A stretch of 64,000 nucleotides of DNA, from the NCBI GenBank assembly GCA_014905635.1, contig JABVCE010000014.1, positions 372,001-436,000 of the forward strand, written 5' to 3'. Every line of letters starts with the position of its first letter. Positions within the stretch are counted from its first letter, which is position 1. Of this stretch, positions 10,773-21,503 are shown piece by piece. The position numbers and the translations under genes are program-made. The DNA comes from Scenedesmus sp. PABB004. Its lineage: Eukaryota. Below the pieces are notes generated by a model that was given only the letters and a program-made list of their open reading frames with translations, was not told the DNA's origin and did no database searches.

Positions 10773-13700
10773 GGCAGGCTGCTGCGCGAGACGTTTGAGC
10801 CGCAGCAGCTCACGCCCGCGAGCATCTTTGACGGCCGCGTGGAGAGCCAGGTCGTGGTCGAGGTCGGGCCGCGGACCAACTTCAGCACCGCGTGGTCGAC
10901 CAACGCGGCCAGCATCGCCGCGAGCGTCGGCCTCGACAAGGTCGCGCGCCTCGAGCTCAGCCGCCGCTACCTGCTCACCTGCGCGCGCCCGCTCAGCGAC
11001 GACGAGCGCGCCGCGTTTGCCGCGATGGTGCACGACCGCATGACCGAGCAGGTGCGCCGCCGCCGGCGCCGCTGCCGCGGCTGCCGCCGCCGCCGCCGCT
11101 TCTGCCGGCGCCGCCGACCCCGCGCCGACCCTGCGCCGCCGACCCCGCGCGCGCCGCGCAGGTGTACGAGGCGCCGCTGGCGACGTTCAAGGTCGACGCC
11201 GCGCCGGCGCCCGTGTTCACGGTCCCGGTCATGGCCCAGGGCCGCGCCGCGCTGGAGGCGATCAACGAGGTGCGGCCCGCGCCGCGCCGTGCTGGGCCTG
11301 GGAGCTCTGGGGCTGGGGAGCCGCGCGCTGCCGCGTGTGTTGGTGTTTGCGTGGTGCCGCGCGCGCGCGCGTGCCTGCGCTTGCGACAAGAGGGAGCCGG
11401 TGACATTAAACACAAACACAACGCACGTATTACCTGAGCAATCGCAGTGCTGAGCTGTACGCCTGAGGCTCCCCCTCGCCGCAGCGCGTGGCGTGGCGCG
11501 GCGCTGACTGCGCGTGTGCGTGCGTGCGCGTGCGCGCGGCCCGACGATGAACACCAATTGATGCATTTCCAGAACCAAAAGCGTGTGGAAAACACTTGGA
11601 GACCTGAACTGAGGGCTGCGCTGCGCGCGTCTGGCGTGTGTGTGTGCGTGCGCGAGCAAGCGGCGACGATGACCAAACTGACTAATCCCAGCTCTCTGTA
11701 GCCGGGCAAACGGCAACGGCATTGCCGCCGGCGTTGAGGACCAACTATGACGGTAGCTGAGCCCTTGCTGCGCCCTCCGCGCGGCGTGTGGTCGTGTGCT
11801 GCTGCTGCCGTTGGCGTGCGCGTGTGGCGGGACCGAGGCGACGATGACCAAACTGACTAATCCCAGCTCTCTGTAGCCGGGCAAACGGCAACGGCATTGC
11901 CGCCGGCGTTGAGGACCAACTATGACGGTAGCTGAGCCTTTGGCGTTGGTTGTGTGCCATGCGTTCTCTGGGCCGCGACCCCGGAGCCCGGCTGGGCGCT
12001 CGCCTGCCGCCGCACGCCGTCCGCGCCCCGTGGCGCCCGCTGACGCGCCGCGCGTCTCCGTCGCGCCCCGCAGGAGATGGGCCTCGCGTTTGACGAGTGG
12101 GACCTCGACTACTACGCCCGCCTCTTTGCCGACATGGGCCGCGACCCCACCAACGTGGAGCTCTTTGACATTGCGCAGTCCAACTCGGAGCACTCGCGGT
12201 GGGCGGGCGGGCTGGCGCGCCGTGGCTCGGCTCGCGCACGCAGCGCGCGCGCGCGCGCCGGTGCGCAGCGCGCCGACAATGCGCCGCCGCCAACAATGTG
12301 TCGCCGCCCGCAGGCACTGGTTCTTCAAGGGCGACCTGGTCATCGACGGCGCCAAGGCGCCCGACAACCTCATGGACGTGGTCACCGCGCCGCTCAAGGT
12401 GCGCGCGTGTGTGTGTCACGCGGCGGGCGAGCCCGCGCGGGGTGAGAACCCTGCTGACGCCGCGTTGGCGGCCGCCGCCCGCGCAGGCGCGCCCCGAGAA
12501 CAACAGCGTGGTCGCGTTCAAGGACAACTCGAGCGCGATCCGCGGCTTCGAGGTGACCGCGGGGCTTCGCCCTCCCGCGCCCGCCCGCGACTGCACCTGC
12601 GGCCGCCGCTGCCGCGCGGCGCCGCGCCGACGAGCCCGCCGCGCCCGCCGCGCAGGTCACGCCGCTGCTGCCGCGCAACCCGGGCGGCCCGAGCGCGCTC
12701 GCGCCGGCGGCGCGCGACTGGGACCTGCTGCTCACCGCCGAGACCCACAACTTCCCCTGCGCCGTCGCGCCCTACCCAGGTGCGCGAGCGCACGGGCGGC
12801 AGCGGCGGTGCCCGCGGCGCGCGGCGCAGCGGCCGGTGCAGCGGCCGCGGCAGCAGCCGCGGCAGTGCGGGGCAGGCGGCCGGCGGCTCGGGGCAGGCGG
12901 CCGGCAGCGCGGGGCAGCGCAGCGCCGCACCCCGCCAGGCGTATCTGGGCCGCTGGAGCCGCCCGCGCCCCTCGGGGCGCGGGCGGCGCTGAGGGCCGCC
13001 TTCGAAGCCCTGGCCAGAGCGACCCGCCTGTGCTTGCGACGTGGCCCGCGGCCCCGCCATTCGCGGTGCCACTACTTTTTGCCAGGGACAGCGCACAGCG
13101 CCCGCTCGCGCGCACCACCCCACGCCGCGCGGCGCCAGTGCGCCGCCCGCGCCGCCGCCGCGCTCACCCGCGTCGCCGCCGCGCCGCGCCCCGCCGCCGC
13201 CGCCCAGGCGCCGAGACGGGCGCGGGCGGGCGCATGCGCGACACGCACGCGACCGGCACGGGCAGCATGATGGGCGCCGGCACGGCCGGCTACTGCGTCG
13301 GCAACCTGCGCCTGCCCGGCGTGCCGGCGCCGCACGAGGACGAGAGCTTTGCCTACCCGGACAACCTCGCCTCGCCCCTGCAGGCGCGCCGCTGCCCGCG
13401 CCGCGCGCCCGCCCTCGCCTGCGCTCGCGGGCGCCCCGCTCCCTCGCCCCTGCGCGGCGCCGGGGGCCGCGCCGCCCGCCGCGCGCCGCGCCGCTGGCTC
13501 GCACCCTGCGCGCCGCGCTGCCCGCTCGCACCCCGCGCCGCTGGCTCACGCCGCGCCGCCGCCGCCGCCGGCGCCGCCGCCGCAGATCCTGATCGACGCC
13601 TCCAACGGCGCGAGCGACTACGGCAACAAGTTTGGCGAGCCCCTCGTCGCCGGCTACACGCGCACGTTTGGGCAGCGCCTGCCCGGCGGCGAGCGGCGCG

Positions 13701-16700
13701 AGTGGCTCAAGCCCATCATGTTCAGGTGGGCTGAGAAGGAGCCGGCGGCCCTGGCCGCGCCGCGCGACGGCGCCAGCGCGGGCGGGGCGCGCGCCGCCGC
13801 CTGCCGGGCCCCCGCCTACGCGGCGCGCGCCTCACCCGCCCCCGCGCGCCGCGCCGCCGTGCCGCGCAGCGGCGGCGTGGGCCAGATCGACCACCGCCAC
13901 CTGGCCAAGGCCGACGGCGAGCTGGGCATGCTGGTCGTCAAGATCGGCGGCCCCGCCTACCGCATCGGCATGGGCGGCGGCGCCGCGTCGAGCGTGCCGA
14001 GCGGCTCGCGCGGCAAGAGCGAGCTCGACTTCAACGCCGTGCAGGCGCGCGCGCGCGTGCGGGCGGCGGCGGCGCGCGCTGCTGGGCCGCGCGCGCGCGG
14101 CGGCGGCGTGCTGGGCCACGCGCGCGCGGCGGCGGCCGCGCTGGGCCGCGCTCGCGCGGCGGCGCCGCGGTCGCGCGGCGGGGGCGCGCCGGGGCGGCGG
14201 CACACAGGCTGCGCACCGCGCGCCCTCCCTCACCCTCCTGCCCGCCCTGCCCCGTCGCGCCGCCCCGCAGCGCGGCGACGCGGAGATGGCGCAGAAGCTC
14301 TGGCGCGTCGTGCGCGCGTGCGTGGAGCTCGGCGGCGCCAACCCGCTGGTGCAGATCCACGACCAGGGCGCGGGCGGCAACTGCAACGTGGTCAAGGAGA
14401 TCATCTACCCCCTGGGCGGCCAGATTGACGTCCGCGCCGTCAAGGTCCGCGCCGCGAACCTTGGACGCGCCGCGCGCTGCGCGTGCTGCGCGCCGCTGTG
14501 TTTTCATCACGCTTTATTGCGTGCTGCGAGCGGCGCGCCGACGCGCCGCCGCCGCCCCCGCGCCCGCCGCCACCGCCGCGGGCACAACAGGTCGGCGACG
14601 AGACGATGTCGGTGCTTGAGATCTGGGGCGCCGAGTACCAGGAGAACGACTGCCTGCTCATCAAGCCGGCCGACCGGGGGCTGCTCGAGGCGATCTGCGA
14701 GCGCGAGCGCTGCCTCATGCAGGTGCGGCGCCGCGGCGGCGCTGGGCGTTTGCGTTTGGCTGTGTTGAGCGTTGGTGTTGACACGTGCGTGCGCGGGGCG
14801 TGCACGCGCGCGCGCGCCGCGCGCGCGGCGGTCGCGCGTGCTTCACGACGCCTGGGACGCCTTCGCGGCGTTGCTGCGCCGCCAGCACGCGCGGCGGCCG
14901 CGCGCGCGGCGCGCGCAGCGGCGCTGGCGCCGCCTGTGCCGCGCGCTTGCGCCGCGCGCCGCGCCCCGCGCCCCGCTGGCGCCGCTGTGTTGTGGCCGTG
15001 CGCTTGCCGTGATGCTTCACACCAATACATGTTAGACTACCGACCGGGGCGCCCTCACACGGCCCCCGGGCTGAGTTCAACACTTCCGTGACTGAGCAAG
15101 CAGTCCCCGCGCGCGTGCGCTGCGCGTGCCGAGCGTGTGCTGCGTGTGCTGCGTGTCGGGCCGTGCGCGGCGGCGGCGGCGGCCTGGCGCTGATGACAAC
15201 ACCAGCAGGAGCCGCGCGCGGCGCTGAGCTGCACACAATTAGACTACAATTCTCTGAGCCACGCGCCCGCCCCTGCCCCTCATCCGTGCCTCGCGCCTCC
15301 CCGCGCACCCACTGGCCCTGGCCCTCACAACCCCCCGCTCCCGCTTCCCCACCCACACCCACACACACCCGCACGCGCTCGCCCGCCCGCAGGTCATCGG
15401 CACGATCGACGGCAGCGGGCGCGTGACGCTCGTCGACCGCCTCGCCGAGCCCGGCACGCCCACGCCGGTCGACCTCAACCTCGACCAGGCGCGCCGCCGC
15501 CTTGCCTGCTGCCGCGCTGCCTGCTGCCCTGCCTGTCTGCTGCGGCCGCGCCGCGCGGCCCTGCCGCGCGGCTGCCGCCGCCGCGCCACGCGCTGCGCCC
15601 CAAGGGCCTCACCCGCGCCCGGTCCTCTGCACGCACCCACCCGCCGCCGCCGCCGCCTAAACCCTAGGTGCTCGGCAAGATGCCCAACAAGACCTTCACC
15701 TTCACCAGCGCTGACCCCGCGCTCGCGCCGCTGGCCCTGCCCGAGGGCACGACCCCGGGCGACGCGCTCGGCCGCGTGCTGCGCCTGCCGGGCGTCGGCT
15801 CGAAGCGCTTCCTCACGACCAAGGTCGACCGCCACGTCACGGGTGCGCGCGCGCCGCCGCCGCTGTTTGGTTGCCCGCGCGTGCCGCTGGCGTGTGTGTG
15901 TGTGTGTGTGTGCGTGTGTGTGTGTGCGCGTGCGCGGGGGCCCGCGCGCCAGCCGTCCGAGGATGCGAAAAGAAATTCCATGCTAATTCCTAGCCCCCCC
16001 TCGCGGGGTGAGTGCAGAGACTCCTTTCTCACCAAGATCTGCACTGAGGACAGCCACACCGCGCGCGCCGCGCGCCCCGCATCGTGTTGGCCCTGCGTTG
16101 ACCGCGTCGCTGCCTGCGCTGCCTGCGCGCCGTCGCCGGCCGCGCACGCCGCGCCGCCGCGCCGCTGACGCCGACGCGCCCGCCCCGCGCCCCGCGCCGC
16201 CCCGCGCCGCCGCGCAGGCCTCGTCGCGCAGCAGCAGTGCGTCGGCCCGCTGCAGCTCCCCGTCGCCGACGTGGCCGTGTACGCGCAGAGCCACTTTGAC
16301 ACGACCGGCCTCGCGACCTCCATCGGCGAGCAGCCGCTCAAGGGCCTGCTCTCGCCCGCCGCGATGGCCCGCCTCGCGATGGGCGAAGCGCTGACCAACC
16401 TCTGCTGGGCCTCGGCGACGAGCCTCGCCGACGTCAAGGCGAGCGTTAACTGGATGTACGCCGCCAAGATGGGCTCCGAGGGCGCCGCGATGTACGACGC
16501 CGCGTGCGCGCTGCGGTGAGTGCGGCGCCGCAGGGGCTGGCGGCGCGCCGCGGCGCGGGGGCTGCGCCGCGTGTGCGCGTGCGTGCGCGCGCGCGTGCGT
16601 GCGTGCAGGCGTGCTGCGCGGCACGGCGCGGTGCGGTGATGATGCACCCCAATCATGCCAGTTCTGCTGCTGAGAACAACCGTGCTGAGAGCGTTGGGTA

Positions 16701-17479
16701 CGCATCACTGAGCACTGCCGCCGCCGCCTGGCGCCCCGCGTGTGCGTGCGCGTGTGAGTGTGAGCGTCGGCGTGAGCGTGCGCGCGCGGGCCGCGAGCCC
16801 GCTCGCGCCCCGCGCGGCGGCAGCAGCAGCTGCTGCCGCGGCGGGGGCGGTGGGGCCTGCCGGTGATGAGAACGATTCTCATTCATGCGTGTCAGTTGAG
16901 GCGCGGCCCGGGGTTCCCCGGCGCCGCCCGCTGAGATCAACCTAATCTTCTCTCTGAGGCCACCCACTCGCTCGCTCGCTGTTGCTCGCGCCGTTGCTGC
17001 CGCATGTCGCGTGTCGCGTGCCGCCGCCGCCGCCGCCGCCGCCGCGCCCCGGCCGGTGATGCACAACCGTTATGTATTTGCTACTCTTGAGCTCGCTCGG
17101 TGACGAAACAATCTCCACCAAGATCTCTGAGGCCCCGCGGCGCGCGGGCGGCGGCTGTGCGCGGCGGCGGCTTGTGCGCGTGCGCGTGTGTGAGGTGCTC
17201 TGCTCCTCGTCGCAGTGGACCCTCCCTTGCGCCTCTCTCTCCTCCTCCCTCTCCACGCGCACCTCTCACGCGCGCCGCCGCTCCCCCACCCCTTCGCCGC
17301 GCCGCAGTGACGCGATGATCGAGCTCGGCTGCGCCTGCGACGGCGGCAAGGACTCGCTCTCCATGGCCGCCTCGGCCGGCGGCGAGACGGTCATGGCCCC
17401 CGGCAACCTCGTCGTGTCGGCCTACGTCGGCTGCCCAGACATCACCAAGGCGCGTGGCGCCGCGCGCAGCTTGGCCTCG

Positions 17480-17510
<31 letters not shown>

Positions 17511-20500
17511 CGCCTGCTGCGCGCGGCCGGCCGCCGGCCGTGGGCGACCACGCCCCGAGGGCTGAGCTGAGCGCCGCCGGCGCGCCCGCGCCGCGCGCAG
17601 GTGGTGACGCCCGACCTGAAGCTCGCGGGCGAGGGCGGCCTGCTGCTGCACGTCGACCTCGCGTCCGTGCCGGGCGCGCGCCGCCTCGGCGGCTCCGCGC
17701 TCGCGCAGGCCTACGACCAGGTGCGGCCGACGACCAGGCGGCGGCGGCCTCCTGCCGCGCCGCGCGCGCGCGAGCGAGGGCGAGGGGAGAGGGGGCGCCT
17801 CGGTCTCCCTGCCTGCTGCCTGCTGCCGGCGCCAGGGGTGCCGGCGCCGACCGCGCCCGCGCCCGCGCCGCGCGCCCCGCAGCTCGGCGACGACTGCCCG
17901 GACGTGCTGCCGGCGCAGCTCAAGGCGGCGTGGGGCGCGGTGCAGGCGGCGGTCGACCGGCGGCTCGTGTCGGCCGGGCACGACGTCAGCGACGGCGGCG
18001 TCGCGACCGCACTCCTGGAGATGGCCTTTGCCGGTGCGCGGCGCCGCGGCGGGGACGGCGCCGCGCGGCGCGGGCCGCGGGCCGCGGCGCGCGGGCAGGC
18101 GCGGCGCCCTCCCTGCCAACCCTCTCGCCGCTGCACGCACGGGCGGACACACTAGAGTCACTCGCATGCCCAAGCCCCGTGGCATGACGCAGCGCTTACT
18201 CCCGCCCAGAGCACAGCTGCTGCGCGCGGGGGCGTCCGCCGGCCGGCCCGCGCCCAGCGGCGGCCGCTGCCCCCGGCGCATTCATCTTTTCCCTTTCCTC
18301 CCCCTCACCCCCTCGTCCCCGTCCCGCCGCGCCTCCCCCGCACGCCCTGCCGCCCGCCCGCCGCCGCTCACCCGCGCCCGCCGCCACCCGCCGCCGCCGG
18401 CCTCCCCCGCCAGGCAACTGCGGCATCGAGGTCGACCTCCCCGCGCCGGCCGTGTGCGCGTCGGCCGAGCTCGCGCCGTATGCGGCGCTGTTTGCGGAGG
18501 AGCTCGGCCTGGTGCTCGAGGTCTCCCCCGCCAACGCGGCGGTCGTGAGCAGCCTCTTCAACCAGGCCGGCGTGCCCTGCGCCATCATCGGCAAGGTGCG
18601 CGGCGCGGCGCACACAGCGCGCCGCCAGGGGCCGCGGGGCGCGGCGCAGCGCTCGCCGCCAGCGGGCGTGCGGCTCCGCGCCGACGCGTCCCGCGCCGCC
18701 CCCGCCGACGGCGGCCGCAGGTGCTGGCGGAGCCGCGCGTCGACGTGCGCGTGGGCGGCCAGCCTGCGCTGTCGGGCAGCACGCCCGCGCTGCGCGACGT
18801 GTGGGAGGAGACGAGCTTTGCGCTTGAGCGCCTGCAGGCGTCCGAGGAGTGCGTGGCGCAGGAGCAGGCGGGCCTGGCGGGCCGCACCGCGCCGGCGTGG
18901 GTCGTGCCCTTCACGCCGACGTTCACCCCCGCCGACAAGCTCAGCGCGGCTGACAAGGTGCGTGCGTGTGTGCGCCGCGCGGGCCGCCGCCGCCGCCGCC
19001 CCGGGCGACAGGTCGCTTGCCACCCCGCGTTGCCCACCCCTCGCTCACTCGCCGCCCGCGCGCCGCGGTCCCCCGTCGCCCCGCGCCCCACCAGGTGCGC
19101 GTCGCGGTCATCCGCGAGGAGGGCAGCAACGGCGACCGCGAGATGTCGGCGGCCGTGTACGCAGCGGGCATGGAGCCGTGGGACGTCACCATGAGCGACC
19201 TGCTCGCCGGCCGCGCCAGCCTCGACTCGTTCAGGCGCGCCGGCGCGACGCCGCGCCGCCGCGCCGCCGCCGCCGCCGCGCCCCGCCCCTTCCTCTGCAC
19301 GCGCCGCGCTCGCCCCGCGCTCACCTCCCCCCGCCCCTCCTGCCCCTCCCCGCCCTGCCCCTCCTGCCCCCCTGGCCCTGCCGCCGCGCGCGCAGGGGTC
19401 TCATCTTTGTGGGCGGCTTCAGCTACGCCGACGTGCTCGACAGCGCCAAGGGCTGGGCGGGCGCGATCCGCTTCAACGACCGCCTGCTCTCTCAGTTCCA
19501 GGCCTTCTACAACAGGTGAGGGCGAGGGAGGGCGAGAGTGTGAGAGCGAGAGAGGGAATGACAGCCCCCGGCAGTGTGCTGTGCGTGTGGTTGGGAGGGG
19601 CGTGTCGGGGTTCTCACCGGGTGGGGGGCTGGGCTGGGCGCGCCGCCCCAACGCCGCCCCAACGCCGCGCCCGCCGCCCGCCCGCCCGCCGCGTGCGCCA
19701 GGCCCGACACCTTCTCCCTGGGCATCTGCAACGGCTGCCAGCTCATGGCGCTGCTCGGCTGGGTGCCCGCGACCGCCGACGCGAGCGGCGGCACCGCCGC
19801 GCAGCTGCCGGACCTGCAGCAGCCGCGCTTCGTGCACAACAAGTCTGGCCGGTGCGCGCCGCGCGCGCGCCGGGGCACGCAGCGCGGGGCCGCGCGGGCT
19901 CCGCCTTGGGGCGCCGCCGCCGTTCCGCTGTGGGGCGGCCCCCCCGCGCTCACGCGCCCGCGCGCCCGCGCGCGCGCCCGCACGACCGCAGTTTTGAGAG
20001 CCGCTGGCTGACGGTGTCCATCGCGGAGGACAGCCCGAGCATGTGGCTCGCCGGCATGGGCGGCGCGAGCCTCGGCGTCTGGGCCGCGCACGGCGAGGGT
20101 CAGGTGCTCTTCCCCGACGCCGCGGTGCAGGCGGCGGTGCTCGACGGCAAGCTCGCCCCGATCAGGTGCGCGGCGCGGCGGCGCGCGGCGCGGCGTGCGT
20201 GTGCGTGTGAGTGTGAGTGTGAGTGTGCGTGTGCGCGTGCGCGTGCGCGTGCGTGTGGGGCGCGCCCGGCCCGCCGGTGAGGAGCACACCAATCGTTGTT
20301 GAGAGCTGAGCGCGGCCGCCCGCGGGGCACGCGGGCGGTCGGTGAAGCCAACCCTGGTTCGCTCGACTGAGGCGTGGCGCGCGGGCGTGCAGCGTGCCGC
20401 GCTGCGCGCTGCCGCGCCGCCGCGCTCCTTTCCTCGCCTCCCGTCCGCGTGGGGCGCCGCCGCTCACCCGTGCGCGTCGCCCTGCCGCCGCCGCCGCCGC

Positions 20501-20786
20501 CGCTGCGCTGCCCGCCAGGTACGTCGACGCGAGCGGCGCGCCGACGGAGGCGTACCCGTTCAACCCCAACGGCTCGCCGCTCGGCATCGCGGGCCTCTGC
20601 TCCGCCGACGGGCGCCACCTGGCGATGATGCCCCACCCCGAGCGCTGCTTCCTCGCCTGGCAGCTCCCCCACGTGCCCAAGGGCGTGGGCCTCGACCCCT
20701 ACGGCCCCGCGCCGTGGCTGCGGCTGTTCCAGAACGCGCGCGCGTGGGCCGAGGCGACCGCGCCGGCCGAGGAGGACGCCGCGTGA
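9798..20786 (+). CDS. purL: Phosphoribosylformylglycinamidine synthase (large PurL/PUR4) with organellar transit peptide, about 29 exons
   Basis: Motifs EVGPRTNFSTAWSTNA, HDRMTE, QSNSEHSRHWFF, TAETHNFP, GAETGAGGRMRD, IHDQGAGG, GGKDSLSM, REEGSNGDREM, GGFSYAD, LGICNGCQL, AHGEG, MMPHPER. Stop at 20784-20786. Confidence 0.95.
11392..11473 (+). ncRNA. Intronic box C/D snoRNA candidate, 18S guide (U45/Um172-like site)
   Basis: 7-bp terminal stem GGGAGCC/GGCTCCC. Degenerate C box GTGACAT, D' CTGA, C' GTGCTGA, D CTGA 11463-66. Guide ACGCACGTATTA is antisense to chlorophyte 18S UAAUACGUGCGU. Confidence 0.7.
11536..11619 (+). ncRNA. Intronic box C/D snoRNA candidate, 25S guide
   Basis: Stem GCGGCCC/GGGCTGC, C box ACGATGA, D CTGA 11609-12. 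Guide CTTGGAGACCTGA is antisense to 25S UCAGGUCUCCAAG; the D+5 rule gives the first G. Confidence 0.75.
11662..11763 (+). ncRNA. Intronic box C/D snoRNA candidate, copy 1 (snR79-like 18S guide; possible snR69-like 25S guide)
   Basis: C box ACGATGA, D CTGA 11757-60. Guide ACTATGACGGTA pairs with 18S UACCGUCGUAGU (one G-U). Upstream CTAATCCCAGCTC pairs with 25S GAGCUGGGUUUAG (one mismatch). Confidence 0.75.
11837..11938 (+). ncRNA. Intronic box C/D snoRNA candidate, copy 2 (identical duplicate of 11662-11763)
   Basis: 102-nt exact duplicate bounded precisely by the GGC/GCC terminal stem; the flanks differ. Confidence 0.75.
13008..13093 (+). ncRNA. Intronic H/ACA snoRNA candidate guiding 18S pseudouridine in GAGUA-U-G-GUCGCAAG
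   Basis: Lower stem CCCTGGC/GCCAGGG followed by ACA (13088-90). Upper stem GTGGC-CCGCG/CGCGG-T-GCCAC. Pocket arms CTTGCGAC and TACTTT pair either side of the target U; 15 nt to ACA. Confidence 0.7.
15002..15101 (+). ncRNA. Intronic box C/D snoRNA candidate (snR58-like, 25S AGU-Cm-UAAC)
   Basis: Stem GCTTGC/GCAAGC, C GTGATGC, D' CCGA, D CTGA 15092-95. Guide ATACATGTTAGACT is antisense to 25S AGUCUAACAUGUAU. Confidence 0.75.
15186..15260 (+). ncRNA. Intronic box C/D snoRNA candidate, 25S 5'-domain guide
   Basis: C box TGATGA, D CTGA 15254-57, GGC/GCC stem. Guide TAGACTACAATTC is antisense to green-lineage 25S GAAUUGUAGUCUA. Confidence 0.7.
15955..16051 (+). ncRNA. Intronic box C/D snoRNA candidate, double guide (18S snR53-like plus 25S)
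   Basis: Stem GTCC/GGAC, degenerate C AGGATGC, D CTGA 16044-47. Guides ATTCCATGCTAAT (18S AUUAGCAUGGAAU) and CACCAAGATCTGCA (25S UGCAGAUCUUGGUG). Confidence 0.75.
16631..16715 (+). ncRNA. Intronic box C/D snoRNA candidate (U38/snR61-like, 25S AGC-Am-GAAC)
   Basis: Stem GTGC/GCAC, perfect C GTGATGA, D' CTGA, C' GTGCTGA, D CTGA 16708-11. Guide GCCAGTTCTGCT is antisense to 25S AGCAGAACUGGC. Confidence 0.8.
16858..16960 (+). ncRNA. Intronic box C/D snoRNA candidate guiding U6 snRNA (A47, C77) and 25S
   Basis: C GTGATGA 16863-69, D' TTGA, D CTGA 16954-57. Guide CTAATCTTCTCT is antisense to U6 AGAGAAGAUUAG. Guide CATTCATGCGTGTCA pairs with 25S UGACGCGCAUGAAUG and with U6 UGACACGCA. Confidence 0.8.
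17051..17134 (+). ncRNA. U24: Intronic box C/D snoRNA U24 (SNORD24/snR24) homologue
   Basis: Stem GGCC/GGCC, C GTGATGC, D' TTGA, C' GTGACGA, D CTGA. Carries both U24 signature guides TATTTGCTACT and CCACCAAGATCT in the canonical order. Confidence 0.88.
18141..18215 (+). ncRNA. Intronic H/ACA snoRNA candidate (snR191/U19-like, 25S helix 69)
   Basis: Stem GGGCGG/CCGCCC followed by AGAGCA(CA). Upper stem CATGCC/GGCATG. Pocket arms AGAGTCA and TTACTC pair with 25S GAGUAA-CUA-UGACUCU. Confidence 0.6.
20272..20374 (+). ncRNA. Intronic box C/D snoRNA candidate, double guide (5.8S 5' end plus 25S 5' domain)
   Basis: Stem CGCC/GGCG, C GTGAGGA, D' CTGA 20306-09, D CTGA 20367-70. Guides CGTTGTTGAGAG (chlorophyte 5.8S CUCUCAACAACG) and CTGGTTCGCTCG (25S CGAGCGAACCGG). 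Confidence 0.75.
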
Positions 20787-21503
20787 GCGCCGCCGGCGCG
20801 CGTGCGCGCGCGTGCGACGTTTGTGCGCATGTCGGGAGCGGGCCGCATGGGGCGGGGCGGGCGGCATTGGAGCTGGCAGGAGGAGGCAGGGACGCAGGGG
20901 GGAGGGGGCAACCGGGGGCTGGCGGCCTGCATCCCAGGCGCGCCGGGGCCGGGGCGCCGCGCCGCGCCGCGCTGCGCGGGGCGCGCGTGTGTGTGTGTGT
21001 TGGCCTCTGTACACTAGAGGACCCGCCGTGGGCGGCGCGTGACCCACTGACCGGCCCGCCCGCGCCGCCGGGGGGCATTTTGTGATGGTGGCGGCCTCCC
21101 TGGTCTGGTCGGCGTCTTTGGCGGCAGCGGCGAACGCCGCCGCACCTCCGTAACTTGTGACGACGACGTCAAAGAGTCAAGCCCTGGGCTCAGCGGCGGC
21201 AGCGCGGCCGCCCGGATCCTACTGCGCGGCAGCCCGTCGTCGGCAGCGCCTGCCGACGCGCCCACGCGCGTGCGCCGCCGCCGCGACACCTGCGCAGCAC
21301 CTACGCAGCACCTGCGCAGCGCTGCTCTTCTGGCATCGCGCCGCGCAGCACCGCAGCCCCCGCGTGGAGCCGCGCCCGTGCGCCACGGCACCCCCTTGTG
21401 CTCCTCGTTGGGCGGCGCGCAGCGTCAGAGGAGCTGCGGCACTCGCGCGCCGCCGCCGCTGCTGCGTCACTGGGGGCCCTTGCCGCGGCGGCGCGCAGCC
21501 GGC

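Follow-up and report, generated by a model that had tools for sequence, protein, structure and literature searches.

The accessible parts of two reports (PMC5855946, PMC7960923) have human U6 methylated at A47 and C77 by separate guides. From the letters of one stretch of the Scenedesmus sp. PABB004 genome, a preliminary description proposed that a single snoRNA combines both guides and that one of the two also reads 25S rRNA. The locus thus raises the question of whether one RNA could serve three targets, and whether such a layout is peculiar to this genome. We refer to the whole stretch of 64,000 nucleotides that was analysed as the window, and all coordinates below are positions in it unless another locus is named.

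The snoRNA gene and its host intron

The gene lies between two further C/D snoRNAs within one intron, and the intron, the cluster and the parts of the RNA were placed as follows:

16516-17307, + strand: host intron of the PFAS (FGAM-synthase) gene, GT-AG, 792 nt, with three C/D snoRNAs (from the open frame)
16628-16718, + strand: Z223-like C/D snoRNA, 5′ cluster neighbour (RF00135, 30 bits, E 0.008, below the Rfam cut-off)
16858-16961, + strand: box C/D snoRNA gene with two guides and three predicted targets, single copy (own model R1)
16859-16861, + strand: 5′ arm of a short terminal stem, pairing with 16958-16960 (3 bp; from sequence)
16863-16869, + strand: canonical box C, GTGATGA (conserved column block in alignment A1)
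16880-16894, + strand: D′ guide, complementary to 25S over 15 nt (one G·U) and, in its final 9 nt (16886-16894), perfectly to U6 67-75
16896-16899, + strand: box D′, TTGA, in register
16900-16929, + strand: GC-rich 30-nt hairpin between D′ and C′ (predicted fold), variable in length and sequence among relatives
16930-16936, + strand: probable box C′, GCTGAGA, deviant (assigned from the alignment)
16942-16953, + strand: D guide, 12/12 to U6 36-47, with D+5 on A40 (human A47)
16954-16957, + strand: box D, CTGA (from sequence)
17051-17134, + strand: U24/SNORD24, 3′ cluster neighbour (RF00069, 46 bits, cut-off 41)

Mapping of 23 introns by hand gave the PFAS gene one open frame of 1202 codons (11001-20790), and Pfam PF22689 matched on the exon upstream of the host intron. 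The RNA itself has box C near its 5′ end, box D near its 3′ end and a short terminal stem, and its target complements (12, 15 and 9 nt) lie directly 5′ of box D or D′ and fall within the 9-20 nt of a box C/D guide. In the internal pair, box D′ is in register and the probable box C′ is a deviant one placed by alignment. Neither the 30-nt hairpin between these two boxes nor the weak C′ box had figured in the preliminary description. Model R1, which was built from the same sequence, gave the RNA 65.7 bits.

Searches of the alga's own genome returned a single copy. Specifically, a pattern for the A47 guide matched once, at this snoRNA, and a pattern for the D′ guide matched twice, at this snoRNA and at a second locus (L076) that was rejected as a chance match with no box C. 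No other snoRNA-like sequence with either guide turned up in these pattern searches.

Further C/D-like elements were seen in other introns of the PFAS gene. One of them (15955-16051, + strand) lies inside the intron at 15843-16217. Like snR53/snoR53Y and Ot-CDsno96, it has a D′ guide complementary to both U6 and 18S: the U6 duplex, in register on A46 (human A53), is 10 nt long, or 11 with a G·U, and the 18S duplex 12 nt. A U24-like motif is present in its D region, and its box D′ is deviant. L061 has an RNA of similar type upstream of its cluster, there with a canonical D′. Together with the two-guide RNA, this element would give the host gene predicted guides for U6 A47, A53 and C77. At the Rfam cut-off, several more C/D-like elements went undetected in the introns at 11270-12073, 14723-15392 and 20166-20518 (+ strand). 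Two of them, at about 11665-11765 and 11840-11940, form a tandem duplicate, and a guide resembling SNORD104 lies near 15006-15052.

Pairing with U6 and 25S

The PABB004 genome contains one full-length U6 gene (L001:1501-1605), in which both target stretches are present, and six rDNA matches at the 25S target site. A further match to U6 (L002; G000:C77:376064-376120), short and weak, lies 3 kb away from the full-length gene and is possibly a fragment. In all five rDNA copies that were read (L004-L008), the sequence some 30 nt before the 25S target departs from what we take to be the expected rRNA, which suggests inserted sequence, for example a group I intron.

Against the alga's own U6, all 12 pairs of the D guide were Watson-Crick, with D+5 on the last A of the ACAGAGA box. 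The 9 nt next to box D′ paired without exception as well, with D′+5 on C70, which corresponds to human C77 by its position within a conserved motif. Pairing of the whole D′ guide with the 25S rRNA extended to 16 nt when a terminal G·U was counted, and D′+5 again fell on a C. The lengths and registers claimed for both guides from the window were thus borne out on the species' own U6 and 25S, at both U6 sites and at the 25S site, and with them the prediction that one snoRNA unites the guides of mgU6-47 and mgU6-77. The 25S target is the site of Arabidopsis Cm2294 and Ostreococcus tauri C2147, to judge by the identity of the guide and by its location, 5 nt past the U15 site.

Each guide found its best-scoring site in U6 and a 14.5-kb rDNA stretch at the proposed target, and the best rDNA site of the D guide reached only 10 nt with two G·U pairs. 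On both strands of the 64-kb window, the D guide alone was a perfect 12-nt complement of U6. Complements of 9 nt occurred 48 times, so that the 9-nt match is not significant by itself, and the C77 prediction rests on the D′+5 register and on conservation, not on duplex length.

We consider it probable that this RNA is a three-target guide, directing 2′-O-methylation of U6 A47 through its D guide and of U6 C77 and one 25S cytidine through its D′ guide. Supporting this function are the canonical C/D boxes, the NTGA form of box D′ and the in-register pairing with own U6 and 25S. Moreover, the U6-type wobble base of the D′ guide is kept in two sources that are independent of our search pattern, the Rfam consensus of SNORD10 and Ot-CDsno85 of O. 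tauri. Against it stands the U6 C77 duplex, which at 9 bp is at the lower edge of validated guides; in the part of PMC8053127 available to us, 100 of 104 Arabidopsis sites have a guide duplex of 9 or more.

The RNA would likely be released from the PFAS intron together with its two cluster neighbours and, by analogy with established C/D snoRNP biology, would assemble with fibrillarin for methylation at D+5 and D′+5. A single G·U-tolerant base lets the D′ guide pair with both U6 and 25S, and both pairings may be put to use. Both arms could bind one U6 molecule, since their duplexes are collinear and 19 bases of U6 separate them, the target sites being 30 nt apart; the 12-bp A47 duplex might then anchor the short 9-bp C77 duplex. 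In Arabidopsis, double guides whose sites are 11-18 nt apart have been proposed to bind simultaneously (PMC8053127, accessible part).

Relatives and the origin of the layout

Metagenomes were scanned with a pattern that required both guides, box D, the U6-type wobble base and the guide order seen here. This yielded 65 loci (42 distinct), among which 57 (35 distinct) had the full two-guide layout and six (6 distinct) a loop variant; the remaining sequence, at L012 and L028 (2 loci, 1 distinct), had no boxes and was dropped as a chance match. The layout that the preliminary description had suggested looking for elsewhere was found widely, including in Chloropicon-like and Nannochloropsis sequences. 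What the 35 distinct relatives have in common is the boxes, the two guides and a hairpin of variable form; outside these parts they diverge (mean column identity 56%). Counting the window together with these relatives, an NTGA box D′ was present in 32 of 36 distinct sequences, the four with a deviant box D′ being of Nannochloropsis type, and the D′-C′ segment folded with a z below -1.5 against base shuffles in 22/36. Since the pattern demanded both guides and the U6-type base, invariance of the guides among these hits is circular, and since it also fixed the guide order, the scan speaks for wide existence of the layout and not for its frequency or for selection on C77. A search of viral contigs that left the wobble base free gave 56 matches; scored with model R1, they reached 20 bits at best and none showed the full layout.

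The cluster order Z223 - two-guide RNA - U24 is conserved among relatives: in the same 36 sequences, the U24 motif was found downstream in 15, the Z223 motif upstream in 12, and both neighbours in 11. The genes next to the relatives fell into PFAS, pICln, DHX8-like helicase, HSP60, BRX1, dynein, RRM protein and ERCC6 groups, the first four of which are presumed to be green-algal. Three others could be placed by named hits. The BRX1 neighbour of L041 is 90% identical to Chloropicon primus, and L056 lies beside a gene for a protein identical to one that clusters with Nannochloropsis oceanica. L070, a single locus with its box C cut by the contig end, immediately precedes an ERCC6 exon; every named hit of this exon is an animal, the best a mite at 46%, and the locus is probably from an animal.

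Pairing of the relatives' guides was scored against the U6 and 25S of the PABB004 genome. With these targets, the U6 C77 duplex of L038 has 12 perfect pairs and its 25S pairing needs three G·U, and in L018/L025 the 25S pairing is down to 9 nt with the U6 pairing kept.

These relatives make it likely that the two-guide layout is an old, conserved family spanning several eukaryote groups, and not a peculiarity of the PABB004 genome. How the layout arose can be read in two ways. We tentatively suggest, at somewhat less than even confidence, that an ancestral eukaryote had one snoRNA for U6 A47, U6 C77 and the LSU cytidine, with both arms clamping one U6, and that this RNA was kept in green algae, Nannochloropsis and some animals, SNORD7 and SNORD10 being its halves after duplication, each with its guide on the original arm. 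On the second reading, which we rate as possible though short of probable, the targets are as predicted, but repeated guide shuffling or recombination between U6-directed snoRNAs produced the layout on several occasions, and the distant cases are convergent. Distant members share boxes and guides only, the neighbour genes vary between groups, snoRNAs are described as moving between hosts (PMC4696412, accessible part), and in the O. tauri data consulted the A47 guide sits at D′ of a separate RNA, all of which fits repeated origin. Yet green-algal, stramenopile and mite-like loci have the same arms, with C77/25S at D′ and A47 at D, and so do the vertebrate families, with SNORD10 at D′ and snoZ30 at D; among the scanned loci this argument is weakened because the pattern could find this guide order only.

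A further reading leaves the A47 and 25S targets in place and takes the U6 67-75 match as an extra grip that helps to open U6 for A47 methylation, so that A47 and the 25S cytidine would be the only methylated sites. This might be suggested by the shortness (9 bp) of the C77 duplex, and by the commonness of additional pairing near methylation sites in Arabidopsis, as far as PMC8053127 was available. The U6 sites reported for Arabidopsis by RiboMeth-seq, in the part of the source seen, are U27, A43, A48, C57, C63, A65, G75 and G84, among which no equivalent of C77 appears if the 5-nt offset deduced from A48 = A53 applies. Six distinct relatives point the same way. These loop variants (L011, L040, L052, L060, L067 and L072), which lie in a gene of weak similarity to human POLR3C (E 0.0011), have an intact A47 guide but no conserved D′ box, and their U6 67-75 complement is part of a hairpin loop. 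Because of this loop and of a box C that lies further upstream, they were removed from the two-guide set; possibly they are an extra-pairing variant of the A47 guide. For the RNA of the window, however, the element stands exactly in D′+5 register on a base that is methylated in human U6, the guide in the vertebrate SNORD10 consensus is the same, and the O. tauri RNA retains the U6-type base with no A47 guide in it, according to the published description at hand. We therefore regard an extra grip in place of C77 methylation as unlikely, and keep the three-target reading.

The preliminary description had found the RNA notable in a genome with many non-canonical donors. GC donors are indeed frequent in the host gene (5 of the 23 mapped introns in 11001-20790, the other 18 having GT), and A47 lies within the ACAGAGA box, so that one could imagine an RNA adapted to tune this box to GC donors. 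As a reason for singling out this RNA, the donors find no support, because the same layout and guides occur in the 35 distinct relatives across lineages; the alga's own U6 is ordinary at both sites, as are the guides of the RNA. Moreover, knockout of the fission-yeast A47 guide had a small effect in the account available to us, and in the literature covered the U6 mark tied to donor sequence is m6A (PMC10484740, accessible part), a different one from that predicted here. Such an adaptation appears very improbable, and a link between the GC donors and the snoRNA is not supported. The GC-AG introns of the PFAS gene begin at 13384, 14045, 15489, 17450 and 19235, and in all five the exon ends in AG and the intron starts with GCGCG.

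Finally, although the two elements that match U6 follow each other in the order of antisense U6, an antisense U6 fragment or a chance arrangement is refuted by the conservation pattern, with boxes and cluster context conserved, 47 nt between the elements that lack a U6 match and hold D′, hairpin and C′, and a D′ guide that extends into 25S complement.

If the ancestral layout proves true, the two human U6 guides would have a common origin, and tractable algae would offer a one-gene handle on A47/C77 coupling on one U6. Independent of origin, there is an annotation gap: a conserved U6-directed snoRNA of many algae goes undetected by Rfam, and a model can now be built for it.

Comparison with known guide RNAs

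In an Rfam scan of the window, no family reached its cut-off for the snoRNA at 16858-16961, and the low-stringency hits covered a guide only. The same held for 40 of the 65 metagenome loci, where no family reached cut-off for the two-guide RNA and only U24 was matched (11/40). Searching the genome with the SNORD10 (RF01290) and SNORD7 (RF00288) models, as the preliminary description had proposed, returned no match for either.

Both guides are nonetheless familiar from these families. The consensus of SNORD10/mgU6-77 (RF01290) carries the same D′ guide core on the same arm, in a model of 139 positions that, unlike the algal RNA, has no A47 guide at box D. Against a gathering cut-off of 37 bits, this model gave no match to the snoRNA at E<=10, and the best relative tested (L053) reached 27.1 bits. 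Tycowski et al. are said to have described, in 1998, a second, 28S target of SNORD10. The U6 A47 guide lies at box D in SNORD7/mgU6-47/snoZ30 (RF00288), snoU6-47 (RF01221) and snoZ30a (RF01196), as it does here, and the algal RNA is identical in 16/16 positions to positions 112-127 of RF01221, the D guide region. In contrast, the consensus sequences of SNORD7, snoU6-47 and snoZ30a lack the C77/25S D′ guide where they are shown, and the gathering cut-offs of these models (50, 54 and 80 bits) were not reached, with guide-only scores of 16.2 (cut-off 54) and 11.3 (cut-off 80). RF00530 (snoMe28S-Cm2645) had no genome match at E<=1. By its predicted pairing, the snoRNA would work like SNORD7 and SNORD10 in one molecule, and by score it belongs to neither Rfam family. 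SNORD10 guides Cm77 of human U6 (PMC7960923, accessible part), and mammals have a class of LARP7-bound U6 guide snoRNAs (PMC11863803, accessible part).

The closest published counterparts come from O. tauri (PMC7671301, as far as available). Ot-CDsno85, an expressed RNA, has a 15-nt D′ guide identical to that of the PABB004 snoRNA; its authors give 25S C2147 as the only target and no U6 target, and from the identity of the guides U6 C77 is predicted as a second target, one unrecorded for this RNA. Ot-CDsno55, also expressed, carries the A47 guide (U6.A45) at D′, whereas PABB004 has it at D. The two O. tauri RNAs are separate and lie on different chromosomes, while the alga studied here has both guides in one. 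In Arabidopsis, SnoR131-133 guide the methylated 25S site C2294 (PMC8053127), the equivalent of the 25S target here; unlike the prediction for the algal RNA, they are not listed as U6 guides in the source consulted on Arabidopsis U6.

Among the openly accessible papers covered, none described a double guide for A47 and C77/LSU; the Chlamydomonas snoRNA catalogue (Chen et al. 2008) may list one. Literature on nucleomorph, Aspergillus and Oxytricha, and PMC6124571, held nothing on the two-guide layout in the parts available. The idea that a guide linking U6 to rRNA is in itself novel did not survive the comparison, given the same D′ guide in the SNORD10 consensus and a triple U6/18S/26S guide in Neurospora. 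The latter, CD11 of Neurospora crassa (PMC2780460, accessible part), resembles the algal RNA in that a single C/D snoRNA has three predicted targets, one of them in U6, but the targets differ (18S A793, 26S A356 and, in Neurospora numbering, U6 'A47'), and its U6 site is probably the equivalent of human A53 because the snR53 guide is shared. No new mechanism is thus called for, since each ingredient is known already (the two guides, targeting of U6 and rRNA by one guide RNA, and guides with three targets), and the two-guide RNA is apparently an uncatalogued, widespread combination of two known guides.
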